Shown one piece after another: positions 23,484 through 63,990 of a stretch of DNA of 64,000 nucleotides (its first letter is position 1; each line of letters starts with the position of its first letter). The DNA lies in the NCBI RefSeq assembly GCF_044324875.1, contig NZ_CP172185.1; one strand, written 5' to 3'. Below the pieces are notes generated by a model that saw only the letters and a program-made list of their open reading frames with translations, ran no database searches and was not told where the DNA came from. The DNA is from Escherichia coli (lineage in GTDB: Bacteria > Pseudomonadota > Gammaproteobacteria > Enterobacterales > Enterobacteriaceae). The translations under genes were made by a program, and so were the position numbers.

Positions 23484-23807
23484 TCTATGGCGCTACTGGC
23501 ACCATAGTACAAAAAATAAGCGATGGTGCCACTGGCACCATAGTACAAAAAATGAGCGATGGTGCCACTGGCACCACGGTATAAAAAATGAGCGATGGTG
23601 CCACTGGCACCACGGTATAAAAAATGAGCGATGGTGACGCTGGCACCATAGTACAAAAAATAAGCGATGGTGCCACTGGCACCACGGTACAAAAAATAAG
23701 CGATGGTGCCACTGGCACCATAGTACAAAAAATGAGCGATGGTGCCACTGGCACCATAGTACAAAAAATGAGCGATGGTGCCACTGGCACCATAGTATAA
23801 AAACGAA
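23484..23807. repeat. Nine tandem 36-bp iterons, each with the 19-bp palindrome ATGGTGCCAcTGGCACCAT plus an A-tract spacer
   Basis: Units start at 23484 (degenerate), 23520, 23556, 23592, 23628, 23664, 23700, 23736 and 23772. Consensus GCGATGGTGCCACTGGCACCATAGTACAAAAAATGA. Confidence 0.95.
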
Positions 23808-26690: not shown

Positions 26691-26828
26691 ATGCGTACCC
26701 TGCTGACCACAGTAAAGAGCGGGCAGCTCTTCGGTCCGGTGATCGGCTCTACACACCAGCTGGATCACAAGGCGCATAAACTCCGTGAAAACCGCGCCGG
26801 GAGAAATCCCCGGAGACTGATGAGATAA
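26691..26828 (+). CDS. Possible 45-aa ORF (MRTLLTTVKSGQLFGPVIGSTHQLDHKAHKLRENRAGRNPRRLMR)
   Basis: Below the ORF-track cutoff. Followed by a strong terminator. No recognised family. Confidence 0.25.
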   Translation: MRTLLTTVKSGQLFGPVIGSTHQLDHKAHKLRENRAGRNPRRLMR

Positions 26829-26848
26829 ACTACAGGGCTGGTAACCCC

Positions 26849-26875
26849 GGGCACCGTTTTTACGGTGCCCTTTTT
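26849..26875 (+). terminator. Rho-independent terminator
   Basis: GGGCACCG-ttttta-CGGTGCCC followed by TTTTTATTTT. Confidence 0.8.
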
Positions 26876-26920
26876 ATTTTGGTATTGACTTTCTTTGTGT
26901 GAGCTTTAAATATGGCAGGG

Positions 26921-27240
26921 CTAACTTGTCGCTCCGGCGACCACCAATGTTCCATAGTGGCCTGTGAGGAACGCCTTCGGGTGGCCCATGTCGCTTCAGC
27001 GACCACCAATGTTCCATGTGGCCTGTGAGGAACGCCTTCGGGTGGCCCACGTCGCTCCGGCGACCACCAATGCTTCATCTGACCTGTGAGGAGCGCCTTC
27101 GGGTGGTCAGTTTTACACCTCCTGAGCCTGAAAGGAGCTGTGCGTACTGAAGGGATATATTCCCGGAAGTACGGGCAAATCTGCACACCTTTGAGAGCAG
27201 ATGTCACTGCGGTTTTCCGTGATGATGAAGGCTTTTTTTA
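26921..27240 (+). ncRNA. Tandem-pseudoknot structured element, STAXI-like, copy 1 (three 61-62-nt units plus a conserved 3' tail)
   Basis: Units GTCGCTCCGGCGACCACCAATGTTCCAT.GTGGCCTGTGAGGAACGCCTTCGGGTGGCCCA repeat 3 times. Hairpin GTCGC/GCGAC plus GTTCC/GGAAC and CCACC/GGTGG pairings. Located between topB and DUF3577/ssb. Confidence 0.55.
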
Positions 27241-27357
27241 CTGCACAGACAGCCGGAAATTCAGCTGATTCCGGCATCCCCGACGGGAACTATCACTCCC
27301 GTCAGGGCTGGTGATGTTCTCCGTCATATCTTTTTTTCACTCCATGGAGAAATCATC

Positions 27358-27822
27358 ATGTCTGCAACTAACTCTACTTCTGCAAAAACTGAATACTTCA
27401 ACCTGACCATGAAAGGTCTTGGGTATCTCAGCAATGTACGTCAGGTTAACCATCAGAACGGTTCGTTCCTCAGCTGTGTGATTAACGCACTGAGTGGACC
27501 AACGGACAATCCGTCCTATACGCGTTTTGATGTTACGGTTGCCGGTAAAGAGGCGACCACCCTGATCTCCCGCTGCCAGAAAGCAGTGGATGAGGACCGC
27601 AAGGTACTGCTTGGTTTTACGTTAAGCAACCTTGCCACCGACATTTTCACCCTGAACAAGGGGGAGCATGCCGGTGAGCAACGCGTCAGCCTGAAAGCCC
27701 GCCTGATCAAGGTGGACTGGATAAAAATAGGCCAGGAGCAGGTCTATAAGGCTGAAAAAGCGGAGTCCCAGCCACCGAGCCATGGCACCACAAAACGTGA
27801 ATACGCAGAAGACTCCTTCTGA
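27358..27822 (+). CDS. DUF3577 / STY4534-family ICE protein
   Basis: MSATNSTSAKTEYFNLTMKGLGYLSNVRQV... is the typical DUF3577 N-terminus (memory). Lies upstream of ssb. Confidence 0.6.
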   Translation: MSATNSTSAKTEYFNLTMKGLGYLSNVRQVNHQNGSFLSCVINALSGPTDNPSYTRFDVTVAGKEATTLISRCQKAVDEDRKVLLGFTLSNLATDIFTLNKGEHAGEQRVSLKARLIKVDWIKIGQEQVYKAEKAESQPPSHGTTKREYAEDSF

Positions 27823-28137: not shown

Positions 28138-28695
28138 ATGGCTTCACGTGGCGTAAACAAAGTTATCCTGATAGGACATCTGGGGCAGGATCCGGATATC
28201 CGGTATTTCCCCAATGGCGGTGGCGTTGTGGCGAATCTGTCACTGGCGACCAGCGACACCTGGCGGGATAAACAGAGCGGTGAAATGAAGGAAGTCACTG
28301 AATGGCACCGCGTTGTTCTCTATGGAAAACTGGCTGAAGTTGCCTGCGAGTACCTGCATAAGGGGTCGCAGGTGTATATAGAAGGCCAGCTTAAAACCCG
28401 TAAATGGTTTGACCAGCAGAATGGTGTGGACCGTTATTCAACTGAGGTTGTTGTGGGCGTGAATGGTGTCATGCAGATGCTGGGTTCATCGCGTCAGCAG
28501 GGCGCTTCCGGTAATGGTGCTTCAGCACCGGCACAAGGGGGCCAGGGACAGCCGCCGAAGACGACCGGACAGACTGGTCGTGCTACCCGGACAACTTCAA
28601 CAGGTAATGGTGCTCCACCTGTGGACTTTGACGATGATATCCCCTTTATGGGGATCGGGTATGGCATGGAACGGCGAATTATTCATGCCATGTAA
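28138..28695 (+). CDS. ssb: Single-stranded DNA-binding protein
   Basis: [20 protein letters not shown]...TEWHRVVL..., a Gly/Gln-rich linker and the C-terminal DFDDDIPF tail. Confidence 0.93.
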
Positions 28696-28741: not shown

Positions 28742-29734
28742 GTGAGTGAAAAAGTTAACAAAATCACTATGATTCATGACGGGGCGTTAAAGAAGACGCT
28801 TGAAGATCCCGCAGCAGTAAGGGACTTTCTTGAACAGGTCTTGACACACGATCAGATATCCCGCTGTAATCTTGATACAATAGAAGTTGAAAAGAATTCG
28901 TTCGTGACGGAAAGTTTGCGTCAGCATGCCTGTGATGTTTTGATCAGCATGAAGACAAACGACGGCAGGGACGGATACATTTATACCTTAATCGAGCACC
29001 AGAGTTCGCCGGATAAATTCATCCCGCTGCGTATGATGCGATATATCCTGGCTGTAATGGAGCAACATGTTGAAAAGCATAAGTGTGCACCTGTGGTGAT
29101 CCCCGTGCTGTTTTATCATGGTGCAGTGCGGCCATATCCGTATCCGCTGAACTGGGTGGATTGTCTGGATGACCCGGAGTACGGACGTGAGATTTATGGC
29201 GAGTCAAAGCCATTCAGTCTGGTGGATGTCAGTACGCTTGATGATGATGAAATTGAGCAGTATCGCCGGATGGCGGCGCTGATGTACACCATGAAGTCCG
29301 GAACTCAGGGTGATTTGATTGAGCTGATTGGTAAATCGATCACACTGACGGATAAGTATGGCAGCAGCGTTCACCTGAATACGGTGCTTACTTATCTGAT
29401 GGAACTTTACCAGATGGATGTTGCTGAACTTTTTGAAGCAATATCCACACACTATCCCAGCCACAAGGGGGTGATTATGACGATAGCGGAACAACTGGAA
29501 GAGAAAGGCCTTGAGAAAGGCCGTGCTGAAGGTCTTGCTGAAGGCCGTGCTGAAGGCCGTGCTGAAGGTCTTGCTGAAGGTCTTGCTGAAGGCCGTGCTG
29601 AAGAGCGTCAAAAAGCGCTTGCAGAAACCTATGCATCTGTCCGTCGCATGAGTGATATGGGGATGTCAACAGAAGTTATTAAGCAAGCTCTTCAGCTTTC
29701 TGATGAACAGATTCAGGAAGCGCTTAATAATTAA
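28742..29734 (+). CDS. Rpn-family recombination-promoting nuclease (YhgA-like PD-(D/E)xK)
   Basis: GGAGG then GTG 28742 (alternative ATG at 28769). HDGALKKTL, DVLISMKT...IYTLIEHQS, and C-terminal AEG[RL] tandem repeats. The longer track ORF from 28463 overlaps ssb and is rejected. Confidence 0.8.
   Translation: MSEKVNKITMIHDGALKKTLEDPAAVRDFLEQVLTHDQISRCNLDTIEVEKNSFVTESLRQHACDVLISMKTNDGRDGYIYTLIEHQSSPDKFIPLRMMRYILAVMEQHVEKHKCAPVVIPVLFYHGAVRPYPYPLNWVDCLDDPEYGREIYGESKPFSLVDVSTLDDDEIEQYRRMAALMYTMKSGTQGDLIELIGKSITLTDKYGSSVHLNTVLTYLMELYQMDVAELFEAISTHYPSHKGVIMTIAEQLEEKGLEKGRAEGLAEGRAEGRAEGLAEGLAEGRAEERQKALAETYASVRRMSDMGMSTEVIKQALQLSDEQIQEALNN
29477..29734 (+). CDS. Candidate nested in-frame small ORF (RpnS-type) inside the Rpn gene
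   Basis: AAGGGGGTG lies 4-5 nt upstream of the in-frame ATG 29477 (MTIAEQLEEKGLEKGRAEG...). Would give an 85-aa product. Confidence 0.4.
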   Translation: MTIAEQLEEKGLEKGRAEGLAEGRAEGRAEGLAEGLAEGRAEERQKALAETYASVRRMSDMGMSTEVIKQALQLSDEQIQEALNN

Positions 29735-58033: not shown

Positions 58034-58152
58034 TGCTTGTTGCTTGTTGCTTGTTGCTTGTTGCTTGTTGCTTGTTGCTTGTTGCTTGTTGCTTGTTGCT
58101 TGTTGCTTGTTGCTTGTTGCTTGTTGCTTGTTGCTTGTTGCTTGTTGCTTGT
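58034..58152. repeat. Perfect heptanucleotide microsatellite (TGCTTGT)x17
   Basis: 119 bp = 17 x 7, no interruptions. Lies 51 bp upstream of the methyltransferase ATG and 60 bp downstream of the ccdB-like stop (both genes on the minus strand). Confidence 0.98.
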
Positions 58153-60775: not shown

Positions 60776-60940
60776 ATTATCACCTTTTGTCTGACAGTTC
60801 ATTTGTTGATGCTATCACGATATTCGCGATGCGGTAAATATATCAATATGTTGGTTTATTTGTGTAATACATTATTTCCCATACGCCATAAATCAGTCTG
60901 TTGACGATAGCTTTTTTCTTTTGTTATTCTGTACCCGCTT

Positions 60941-61190
60941 TAACTGTCGCTTCGGCGACCACCAATGTTCCATGAGGCCTGTGAGGAACGCCTTCGGGTG
61001 GCCCACGTCGCTCCGGCGACCACCAATGCTCCATCTGACCTGTGAGGAGCGCCTTCGGGTGGTCAGTTTTACACCTCCGTAGCCTGAAAGGAGCTGTGCG
61101 TGCTGATGGGATATGTTCCCGGAAGTACGGGTAAATCTGCACACCTTTGCGAGCAGATGTCACCACGGTTTACGTGATGATGAAGGCATT
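60941..61190 (+). ncRNA. STAXI-like tandem-pseudoknot element, copy 2 (two units plus tail)
   Basis: Near-identical to 26921-27240 minus one unit. Same orientation. Confidence 0.55.
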
Positions 61191-61921
61191 CCGGATTTCG
61201 TCCGGTACTTTTACTTTTTCTCAGCAGACTTTCATAAAAATGCTTTATGGATCTGCTTCTTAAGATGTTTTCTGGCTTTCCGCATAAGCTTCTTATGACT
61301 GTGCGCACGGCATAAGGCCATTTGAAATTTGGCCGCTTGCGTGTGTACGTGGATTTTGAAGCCTTGCGGCGTCACTTGAGTGCGACCGTAGGGAACACCA
61401 AGTGACGCCACAACAATCTGCCCTGAAAGCAGCATCACGTAAGGCCAGCCAGAAAATCGTCGCTCGTGACCAGCGTTCTGATGACCGTTTCGTCTGTCTG
61501 ACAGCGTCTTTCAGTAACGTGTCCATGCCTTTCCGGCGCGTCCGTTTTCACGGACGGCCACGCCGGAATGTCTTTTTAAACTTCATAATACATGAGAGGT
61601 AAGTGTATTAACTTGTTGAAAAAAGGAATAAATATGAAAAATCGTTCTGAAGTCGGAAGGCGTCATCGTAAGATGACGGGGAGTAAAAAATCGCCCTGGT
61701 GCACAGGTAGCGAACTCCTGTAAAAACTCAACATGTGCAAGCTCTGCTACATCGACATCAAACGAGCCAGGAAGGCGAGCAACCGCGTTACAGAGCCGTC
61801 CGTGATGACGAAAAACTAACAATATCAACGATCTGGTCTGTTTATCGGAAGGGCATCTCATGCAGTTGAACTTTCAGAACGGATGGTTTTCTGCATCTTT
61901 TTTAACAGGGGGATTGACGTT

Positions 61922-62839
61922 ATGTCCCGTAAATCGTCACGTTCCAAAGTTGAAGTCTTTCGCAAGTCATTCATCTCACTTGCCCGTGATTGTGGTGGCA
62001 GCTACGCAACAACCGCTGACAGAATGCGAATTGCCAGATACTTTTTGAATTATTTGCAAGTAAACGGTATCAAACTTCGTCAGACGGGCAGTATTAAGAC
62101 GAGGCATATTTCTGGTTATCTTCTCAGCAGGAAAGAGCAGGGGATCTCTCACCGCACAATTCAGAATGAACGGGCAGTTATGCGCGCAATTCTAGAGAAA
62201 GATGGTCGCCTTAAAATAGCGGATCCGTCCAATCCTTTATTGAGCAATGAAGCTCTTGGACTCAGGGATACATGCCGTGATGGTAAAAAGATACCACTCT
62301 CACAGGATGAGTTTAATAAAGCCTTCAGTAAGGTTGAAAAAAATAATCCCGGTGTTGCTGCAGTAATGCAAATTTCTTATGTTCTTGGACTGAGGACAAA
62401 AGAAGCTGTTCAGTCTTGTAAATCAGTTAACTCGTGGCTACGTGAACTTGATTCAGGGCATGATTCTCTTCTCGTTGTTTTTGGGACGAAAGGTGGAAGG
62501 CCCAGAGATACAACGATCATTAATCGTGATGCAGTGAAACATGCGCTCATTTATGCAAAAAACATTATGGATAAACAGAATGGTAAACTTATCGATTGCC
62601 CCAATATTAAACAGGCTATAAACGTATATCGTTACCATGTAAGAAAAGCTGGTTTATCTGGAGTGAAGGCACCACATAGTATGCGTTATCATTTTTCGCA
62701 GGAAGCAAGGCAGTTTTATCGAAAAAGTGGATATGGAGATAAAGAAATTTACGCAAGGGTTTCCATGGACCTTGGTCATGGTGACGGAAGAGGGCGTTAT
62801 GTAAAACAGGTCTACTTTAAAGGCGATGATGAGAGCTGA
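61922..62839 (+). CDS. Tyrosine recombinase (plasmid/ICE integrase-domain family)
   Basis: GLRTKEA (Arg), HSMRYHF (HxxR), GRGRYVKQVY (Tyr). SAM-like N-terminal domain. Confidence 0.7.
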   Translation: MSRKSSRSKVEVFRKSFISLARDCGGSYATTADRMRIARYFLNYLQVNGIKLRQTGSIKTRHISGYLLSRKEQGISHRTIQNERAVMRAILEKDGRLKIADPSNPLLSNEALGLRDTCRDGKKIPLSQDEFNKAFSKVEKNNPGVAAVMQISYVLGLRTKEAVQSCKSVNSWLRELDSGHDSLLVVFGTKGGRPRDTTIINRDAVKHALIYAKNIMDKQNGKLIDCPNIKQAINVYRYHVRKAGLSGVKAPHSMRYHFSQEARQFYRKSGYGDKEIYARVSMDLGHGDGRGRYVKQVYFKGDDES

Positions 62840-63583: not shown

Positions 63584-63732
63584 CCTGATATCTCTCTTTA
63601 AGGTTCATTAAGAGTGTTACTGAGTAAAAAAATATCAAATTAAGTATTTATTGTCATTCAGTTGTAGCTTCTCAGCCGCTCCACGACAATAACAACTTGA
63701 AGTTTTATGCAGTTTGTGCTTACAATTTAAAC

Positions 63733-63990
63733 GCTAACTTGTCGCTTCGGCGACCACCAATGTTCCATGTGGCCTGTGAGGAACGCCTTCGGGTGGCCCA
63801 CGTCGCTCCGGCGACCACCAATGCTTCATCTGACCTGTGAGGAGCGCCTTCGGGTGGTCAGTTTTACACCTCCTGAGCCTGAAAGGAGCTGTGCGTGCTG
63901 AAGGGATATGTTCCCGGAAGTACGGGCAAATCTGCGCACCTTTGAGAGCAGATGTCACTGCGGTTTTCCGTGATGATGAAGGCTTTTTTA
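63733..63990 (+). ncRNA. STAXI-like tandem-pseudoknot element, copy 3 (two units plus tail)
   Basis: Near-identical to copy 1 and copy 2. Same orientation. Close to the window edge. Confidence 0.55.

Follow-up and report, generated by a model that had tools for sequence, protein, structure and literature searches.

Three copies of STAXI in a conjugative island

The stretch of DNA analysed here (64,000 nucleotides (nt) of Escherichia coli contig NZ_CP172185.1, assembly GCF_044324875.1; hereafter the window) is part of an integrative conjugative element of the SPI-7/ICEclc type, an island that extends from parA to a TraI-domain relaxase, a tyrosine integrase and tRNA-Phe. The window carries three copies of a repeated element that a first-pass annotation, made from the sequence alone, had taken for the STAXI RNA motif. 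Copy 1 has topB upstream and the DUF3577 and ssb genes downstream; copy 2 is followed by the EFASI RNA and an integrase-domain gene (Integrase_1, 61901–62818), and copy 3 by a gene for a protein of 133 amino acids (aa) and by ardA, beyond the window end. All three copies lie on the + strand, in the same direction as their downstream genes, and are made up as follows:

26927..26988, + strand: canonical unit 1 of STAXI-1 (62 nt), a P1 hairpin that precedes an H-type pseudoknot, in which a C(UUCG)G hairpin is embedded
26989..27049, + strand: canonical unit 2 of STAXI-1 (61 nt)
27050..27110, + strand: canonical unit 3 of STAXI-1 (61 nt), in which both the pseudoknot helix and stem A carry compensatory variants
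27119..27176, + strand: degenerate unit T1 of STAXI-1, CUCC / GCC / UGAAA / GGAG / long hairpin / GGC
27180..27231, + strand: degenerate unit T2 of STAXI-1, (A)UCUGC / CCUUU / GAGA / GCAGA(U) / hairpin / GAAGG
27233..27239, + strand: U-run immediately 3' of T2 in STAXI-1, a possible partial terminator
60945..61186, + strand: STAXI-2, units 60945–61005 and 61006–61066, then T1 and T2, ending GAAGG
61191..61215, + strand: terminator-like hairpin CCGGATTTCGTCCGG and T-rich run, 3' of STAXI-2
63740..63989, + strand: STAXI-3, units 63740–63800 and 63801–63861, T1/T2 ending at 63982, U-run 63984–63989

Tandem Repeats Finder placed a 61-nt period at 26927–27106 (2.9 copies, 90% matches) and at 60946–61062 and 63741–63857 (1.9 copies apiece), and together with an alignment of the three loci it agreed with the annotated arrays of three, two and two units, all on the + strand. 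Between TGTCGC and GATGATGAAGGC the three loci are ~97% identical. Their flanks are mutually unrelated, and the element therefore has sharp borders. Each canonical array then carries a conserved tail of ~120 nt; in copies 1 and 3 this closes with GAAGGC followed by a T-run, and in copy 2 with a separate hairpin and T-rich run.

When the window was scanned at Rfam gathering thresholds, STAXI (RF01728; gathering score 40.5 bits) was recovered on the + strand at all three loci, with matches of 85.3, 83.3, 66.3 and 61.6 bits (E values 1e-10 to 1e-16). The features by which the family is recognised are there as well, namely at least two tandem pseudoknot units (three, two and two canonical ones, plus two degenerate units in each copy), a UUCG tetraloop (GCC-UUCG-GGU in 7/7 units of the window) and neighbouring genes for Ssb, a topoisomerase, antirestriction and an integrase, represented by TopB, DUF3577–Ssb, the integrase-domain gene and ArdA. 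The three repeats are genuine STAXI copies and not a new kind of element; the earlier identification, including its appeal to the neighbours, was correct, and the motif itself has been known since 2010.

A one-unit covariance model was built from the seven units of the window, using the nested helices only and leaving the pseudoknot helix out, and was searched on 80 loci from species-representative genomes that had been retrieved by an in-unit pattern. This gave 138 unit matches, 91 of them distinct, across many Enterobacterales genera, with unit lengths of 50–65 nt. Among 72 non-redundant arrays, 46 have one canonical unit and 25 have two; the sole array with three, copy 1 of the window, is the largest in the sample. 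The region around this copy (26800–27360) is 100% identical to E. coli TUM1886 (NZ_CP128970.1), and the same search returned a match in only 48 of 5426 complete E. coli genomes. STAXI was absent from the phage collection searched. The one plasmid match that we examined lies in a plasmid-borne island of the same type and held no independent information on the origin of transfer (oriT) or the strand. The order STAXI–EFASI–integrase is also present on a Citrobacter plasmid (locus L085).

Copies within one island resemble each other closely. Those of the window are 0.92–0.98 identical to one another and at most 0.74 identical to any other lineage, and within-island identity is 0.94–0.97 in the Salmonella-type, P. 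jejuense, S. microhaemolytica and C. neteri islands. Copies that occupy the same position in other island lineages (loci L004–L082) are far less alike than copies within an island. This suggests either a shared island-specific partner with which the copies co-evolve or gene conversion among them.

A string of pseudoknots supported by covariation

The canonical unit has a P1 hairpin and a conserved linker (CCACCAAUG), besides three helices: the pseudoknot helix (GUUCC/GGAAC, 5 bp), stem A (6 bp) and stem B (3 bp), the last of which is capped by UUCG. Stem A, (GU)GGCC/GGCC(CA), interleaves with GTTCC/GGAAC and encloses the GCC-UUCG-GGU hairpin. Across the 91 distinct units, this full structure is paired in 97.8% of cells and 17 of its 19 pairs show double-sided changes, a degree of pairing and covariation matched by none of 500 shuffles (0/500), while slid controls drop to 28–50% paired. 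The pseudoknot helix itself is paired in 99.3% of cases and covaries at 5/5 pairs (UA/CG/AU and so on); its support is independent because this helix was absent from the search model.

Compensatory changes, which the first-pass annotation had proposed to look for, are abundant among the distinct units and bear out both its GTCGC/GCGAC hairpin and its GTTCC/GGAAC pairing, each of which covaries. The unit-3 variants that it had singled out (GCTTC/GGAGC and TGACC/GGTCA) are likewise compensatory. A further pairing, CCACC/GGTGG, had been described as interleaved, yet it is nested as written and covaries no better than shuffled sequences do (0.050 versus 0.051 in the 91 distinct units). Position 83 disrupts it in 34/81 units and it also competes with stems A and B; we have rejected it. 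Minimum-free-energy folding without pseudoknots was uninformative, with z = -2.5 for the + strand and -1.7 for the - strand.

The tail had been viewed as a conserved sequence following the units. It is indeed present in all copies, but it is not a separate kind of sequence. Alignable over 61 distinct sequences, it resolves into two degenerate pseudoknot units, T1 and T2, which have the same topology as the canonical ones and are paired in 96–99.7%, with covariation (pseudoknot helices 97.0% and 99.7%). A STAXI element is one to three canonical units, then T1 and T2.

The folding strand and a promoter in fixed register

The kind of imperfect pair found in the helices tells the two strands apart. 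There are 56 G.U or U.G pairs, plus 88 at one conserved position of stem B, and only 9 A.C or C.A pairs; pairing has therefore been selected on the gene-sense strand. The loop of stem B is UUCG in 83/91 distinct units. As a C(UUCG)G loop is unusually stable in RNA and not in DNA, it has been used before as an argument that STAXI acts as RNA (Weinberg et al. 2010, PMC2864571).

Upstream of the units we found a promoter-like arrangement. In 65 of 67 arrays, which are non-redundant yet not phylogenetically independent, a TTGA[CA] box lies 40–44 nt 5' of the first unit (TTGACA in 37 arrays, TTGACG in 13), most spacers measure 17 nt, and in almost all arrays the -10 box ends 13–15 nt before the unit. 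The sequence surrounding these promoters falls in many unrelated families. The three sites of the window are:

26885..26913, + strand: promoter-like site of STAXI-1, TTGACT, 17 nt, AAATAT; 13 nt separate the end of the -10 box from the first unit
60901..60930, + strand: promoter-like site of STAXI-2, TTGACG, 18 nt, TATTCT; flagged by the promoter scan in register
63697..63726, + strand: promoter-like site of STAXI-3, TTGAAG, 18 nt, TACAAT; flagged by the promoter scan in register

Because a fixed sigma-70 promoter, a fold in the sense strand and an RNA-specific loop coincide, we place the predicted start of the transcript ~6 nt before P1. The conserved sigma-70 promoter in fixed register before STAXI appears to be new. 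That STAXI is an RNA made by the host sigma-70 polymerase, and not a single-strand DNA promoter, now seems largely settled by these features. Strand-specific RNA sequencing (RNA-seq) of Pectobacterium atrosepticum had recorded a contiguous transcript of 453 nt after topB (PMC4710047), which matches STAXI plus the leader described below, and STAXI has been detected by reverse-transcription quantitative PCR (RT-qPCR) in E. coli vesicles (PMC12370729).

Three-prime ends and the leader of the DUF3577 gene

A U-run 3' of T2 is present in only 5 of the 72 non-redundant arrays, namely copies 1 and 3 of the window and the Salmonella-type arrays. STAXI is therefore mainly a 5' leader, and elsewhere the transcript would continue. 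Terminator-like signals do lie between STAXI and the genes in the window (the U-run at 27233–27239, a hairpin and U-run near 27330, and 61191–61215), but no conserved terminator was found there across homologues, a rough predictor reporting such signals in 5/19 DUF3577 leaders and 9/33 others. The absence of a 3' terminator from most homologues, as judged from the U-run count, is a further new point.

The first co-oriented gene downstream is DUF3577 in 26 arrays, starting 118–132 nt past T2 in the 19 distinct leaders examined. In 13 arrays it codes for an Integrase_1 protein ~620–740 nt away, with EFASI in between, in 10 arrays for an unannotated protein of ~140 aa (133–142 aa), and occasionally for ArdC. 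Pfam assigned DUF3577, Integrase_1, ArdcN or nothing to these downstream genes, and no endoribonuclease of the ToxN/AbiQ/CptN/TenpN type. The surroundings of copies 1 and 2 include:

26849..26880, + strand: intrinsic terminator of topB, hairpin GGGCACCG-TTTT-TACGGTGCCC and a T-run
27240..27357, + strand: conserved leader of the DUF3577 gene, whose alternative hairpins exclude each other, one of them involving pairing to the ribosome-binding site
27358..27822, + strand: DUF3577 / STY4534-family gene, the first gene of an operon that reaches ssb (28138–28695)
61642..61764, + strand: EFASI RNA (RF02957), 71.7 bits, between STAXI-2 and the integrase-domain gene

The predicted topB terminator would shield STAXI-1 from upstream transcription. 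No promoter-like sequence was noticed by eye in the interval between T2 and DUF3577, and since topB has a terminator of its own, no promoter other than that of STAXI is apparent for the genes from DUF3577 through a 67-aa open reading frame (ORF) to ssb. We read STAXI as the 5' module of the DUF3577–ssb mRNA because U-runs are few, the distance to the gene is fixed, no intervening promoter was seen and the topB terminator lies upstream; by extension, the integrase and ArdA transcripts would start with it as well.

The DUF3577 leader is itself conserved, being kept from Enterobacterales to Pseudomonas, Ralstonia and Vibrio, and has no Rfam family. In the window it contains the hairpins GCCGGAA..TTCCGGC and then GACGGGA..TCCCGTC, and a third arm (GTGATGTTCTCCGTC) whose alternative partners are GACGGGAACTATCAC or the ribosome-binding site (GGAGAAATCATC). 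Across homologues, the arm GUGAUGUUCUCCGUC has the same kind of choice between GACGGGAACUAUCAC and the ribosome-binding site, with RNAalifold favouring the form in which the latter is sequestered. In these models the leader looks like a translational switch or attenuator.

A parallel with the radC motif

A tblastn search of plasmids with DUF3577 uncovered distant homologues in Pseudomonas, Burkholderia, Ralstonia, Stutzerimonas, Vibrio and others. Upstream of the DUF3577 leader in pKLC102, R. solanacearum, S. zhaodongensis and an E. ludwigii plasmid lies another Rfam family, the radC motif (RF01754, Weinberg et al. 2010; 82–124 bits), with three copies each in pKLC102 and Stutzerimonas. The radC motif loci are:

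L086: 1672–1819, 2749–2899 and 5277–5414
L088: 2771–2915
L089: 2742–2891
L091: 6416–6559, 7775–7920 and 11610–11748

We searched these RNAs automatically for the topology of the STAXI unit (b, A5', loop, b', hairpin, A3'), a search that also recovers the units in the STAXI copies of the window. Two non-overlapping units of this topology, at matching positions, were found in 8/8 radC RNAs versus 2/400 shuffles. The radC RNA consists of a P1 hairpin and two pseudoknot units, whose helices differ in sequence and stay complementary, i.e. covary; stem A, for instance, occurs as GAUC/GAUC, GGAUC/GAUCC, GGGUU/AACCC, CGGUC/GACCG and GACC/GGUC. TTGAC[AT] stands in fixed register in 5/8 of them.

The radC motif resembles STAXI in its promoter-proximal slot, in the island family that carries it (MPF_G/MOBH), in the DUF3577 leader that follows and in the presence of several copies per island. 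It differs in that it occurs mostly outside Enterobacterales and has no sequence-level match to STAXI. The window has no RF01754 match at the gathering score, and around copy 1 none at E<=1; the STAXI-unit model, run with filters off, gave no significant match on the radC RNAs, and the Rfam STAXI model gave nothing at E<=0.1 at the radC loci. Neither family belongs to an Rfam clan. As neither covariance model detects the other family, we dropped the idea of sequence-level homology. Thus, STAXI and the radC motif appear to share an architecture and a genomic position or role, and we do not claim common descent. A metagenome pattern scan for extra radC copies yielded two loci, both of which proved false positives once aligned. 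In Burkholderia, Vibrio and Comamonas, other, shorter leaders occupy the STAXI/radC slot.

A proposed mechanism and its rivals

We propose that the host sigma-70 RNA polymerase starts ~6 nt ahead of the first hairpin and makes RNA of the gene-sense strand, and that the STAXI RNA would fold as a string of three to five compact H-type pseudoknots. It would form the 5' module of the transcripts into DUF3577–ssb, EFASI–integrase and the ArdA region, here called establishment operons because the island requires their genes upon arrival in a new host cell, and would act at the RNA level, mainly in cis, as a multivalent protein-binding leader. Expression of the downstream operon may then be tuned via transcript stability, read-through and the leader that sequesters the ribosome-binding site. 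In this E. coli lineage, the U-run after T2 probably frees an RNA of ~310 nt as well, by partial termination. The likeliest partners would be the single-strand-binding-type proteins encoded downstream, DUF3577 and Ssb, by analogy with phage T4 gene 32, whose leader mediates autogenous control by the single-strand-binding protein. A hint that DUF3577 may be a second, OB-like (oligonucleotide/oligosaccharide-binding) protein of this type in the ssb operon comes from Foldseek, in which the weak matches of its AlphaFold model were mostly OB folds of SSB and PriB. The protein may be the counterpart of InrR of ICEclc.

Taken as a whole, the proposal of a cis-acting, multivalent protein-binding STAXI leader on establishment-operon transcripts has, in our estimate, an even chance of being right. 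What the analysis establishes is the family identity, the fold and its strand, the register of the promoter and the fact that no 3' terminator is conserved; that STAXI acts in cis, binds a protein and has one of the partners named above is our best guess. Several observations weigh against the proposal besides the phylogenetic dependence of the arrays mentioned above. The -10 box of STAXI-1 is weak (3/6) and was not flagged by the promoter scan. STAXI loci of enterohaemorrhagic E. coli (EHEC) gathered only 2–6 RNA-seq reads (PMC5331693), which may mean that the promoters are silenced while the island is resident. Rfam lists STAXI under the type 'Gene; sRNA', and, given the U-runs that close copies 1 and 3 and the terminator-like hairpin behind copy 2, a discrete small RNA (sRNA) is plausible in the island of the window. 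As for the partner, the AlphaFold model of DUF3577 is poor (pLDDT 54), so that its beta-beta-beta-alpha-beta-beta order is of low confidence, and a PDB sequence search with the protein found no match.

STAXI could instead be a free, trans-acting sRNA, a sponge, decoy or base-pairing RNA released by termination or processing, which, shortly after the island enters a cell, titrates a factor of the host or the island, for instance a defence protein or one that binds RNA. Its multivalent repeats recall protein-sequestering RNAs of the CsrB or ToxI type, and three near-identical copies per island with their own promoters would provide dosage; the Rfam type, the 3' ends in the window and the detection in vesicles fit this explanation, too. 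However, most homologues lack the U-run and read into a conserved leader and gene, the element is always near, and co-oriented with, a downstream gene, and antisense matches to the conserved single-stranded motifs CCACCAAUG and CCUGUGAGGA in the window were not above chance except for the STAXI copies themselves. We consider a free sRNA unlikely, though by no means negligible. Quite improbable, in our view, is processive antitermination of the put or nut kind, in which the nascent pseudoknots modify RNA polymerase, alone or with a protein. It would account for the fixed promoter-proximal position, for the terminator-like signals between STAXI and the genes of the window and for the way in which one copy heads each of several co-directional operons, as nutL and nutR do, yet such signals were predicted in only a minority of homologues by the rough predictor, and STAXI bears no likeness to put, nut or EAR RNAs, none of which matched in the Rfam scan.

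The first-pass annotation had also raised the possibility that STAXI works as folded single-stranded DNA (ssDNA) on the transferred strand, be it as a Frpo-like single-strand promoter or as an ssi-type priming site. While ssb, ardA and integrase neighbours are typical of leading regions and the idea goes back to the description of the motif (Weinberg et al. 2010, PMC2864571), it is disfavoured: the pairing constraint acts on the sense strand, whereas a single-strand promoter for the downstream gene must fold in the template strand; a conventional duplex -35/-10 promoter stands in front of the element; the stability of the C(UUCG)G loop is specific to RNA; a string of short pseudoknots takes the place of a long promoter-mimicking hairpin; and transcripts have been detected. 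We regard a role as ssDNA as very unlikely. Still less credible is a type III antitoxin array of the ToxI type that neutralises a downstream endoribonuclease. The layout of toxIN (promoter, tandem pseudoknot repeats, sometimes a terminator, then the gene) resembles that of STAXI, but the genes downstream of STAXI vary (DUF3577, integrase-domain, 133–142-aa proteins, ArdC) and none has a ToxN/AbiQ-type domain; moreover, there are only one to three units, then degenerate ones, and the terminator is mostly absent. Finally, the repeat could be protein-coding or a functionless duplication, and two mechanically called ORFs do overlap copy 1 (26860–27207 on the - strand, 115 aa; 27086–27268 on the + strand, 60 aa). 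Against this, the 61-nt period is not a multiple of three and unit length varies, substitutions keep base pairs and not codons, and RefSeq has no gene there, which leaves this explanation a vanishingly small chance.

The proposed cis-acting leader could be taken one step further. STAXI and the radC motif might be two branches of one class of promoter-proximal tandem-pseudoknot operators, with the island's DUF3577 or Ssb binding the leaders and repressing the ssb, integrase and antirestriction operons unless ssDNA titrates it. We give this extension a slim chance. If true, establishment genes would be expressed only while ssDNA is present, i.e. during transfer or replication, and the islands would possess a gene-32-like ssDNA sensor that spans several operons.

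STAXI has been an orphan motif since 2010, and the question posed at that time, whether it acts as RNA or ssDNA, can be considered largely settled on sequence evidence. Its link to the radC motif by position and fold suggests that one class of pseudoknot leaders heads establishment genes (ssb, integrase, antirestriction, radC) in many proteobacterial islands of the ICEclc/SPI-7 type, and this class would offer a concrete handle on early gene control in such islands. The new knowledge is modest (the register of the promoter, the make-up of the tail as units, the status as leader and the radC parallel), but it makes STAXI function more testable, and three near-identical copies before three operons are convenient for deletion, dosage and cis-versus-trans work.

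Other repeats in the window

Three further repeats were noted in the same island. A 36-bp tandem repeat (8.8 copies, 23487–23803) with the palindrome ATGGTGCCA.TGGCACCAT in each unit sits between a STY4528 'replication protein' gene and a PFL_4669 gene; E. coli TUM1886 has seven extra units (252 bp), and the repeat resembles an iteron array or a centromere-like one whose length varies. A perfect (TGCTTGT)x17 tract at 58034–58152 lies beside ccdAB and ~50 nt 5' of the point where a - strand gene for an EcoRI-family adenine methyltransferase begins; it is a candidate for slipped-strand phase variation. Besides, an in-frame 12/24/36-bp tandem repeat (AAGGCCGTGCTG) lies at 29505–29626 inside a gene for an Rpn-family recombination-promoting nuclease (28742–29734).

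Comparison with known systems

All defining features of the STAXI family (RF01728), a host within Enterobacterales among them, are present in the copies of the window, and nothing essential is different. What goes beyond STAXI as known so far are the fixed-register sigma-70 promoter, the 3' part made of two degenerate units and the fact that the element is mostly devoid of a 3' terminator. Like the Frpo and ssi elements of conjugative plasmids, STAXI adjoins ssb and ardA-type leading-region genes; unlike them, it folds the wrong strand, lacks a promoter-mimicking hairpin and has a duplex promoter upstream. With ToxI and other type III antitoxin RNAs it shares tandem pseudoknot repeats behind a promoter, and it differs from them in having no cognate toxin gene, few and partly degenerate repeats and variable downstream genes. 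HK022 put and lambda nut are likewise promoter-proximal RNA elements that are repeated before separate early operons of a mobile element, yet there is no similarity in sequence or structure, and terminator-like signals downstream of STAXI were predicted in only a minority of homologues. Compared with the T4 gene 32 leader, the STAXI units are larger and repeated, and they also head the integrase and ArdA operons. The likeness to gene 32 lies in a pseudoknot at the 5' end of the leader of a single-strand-binding-protein operon, an arrangement in which, by analogy, ssDNA could titrate the repressor.

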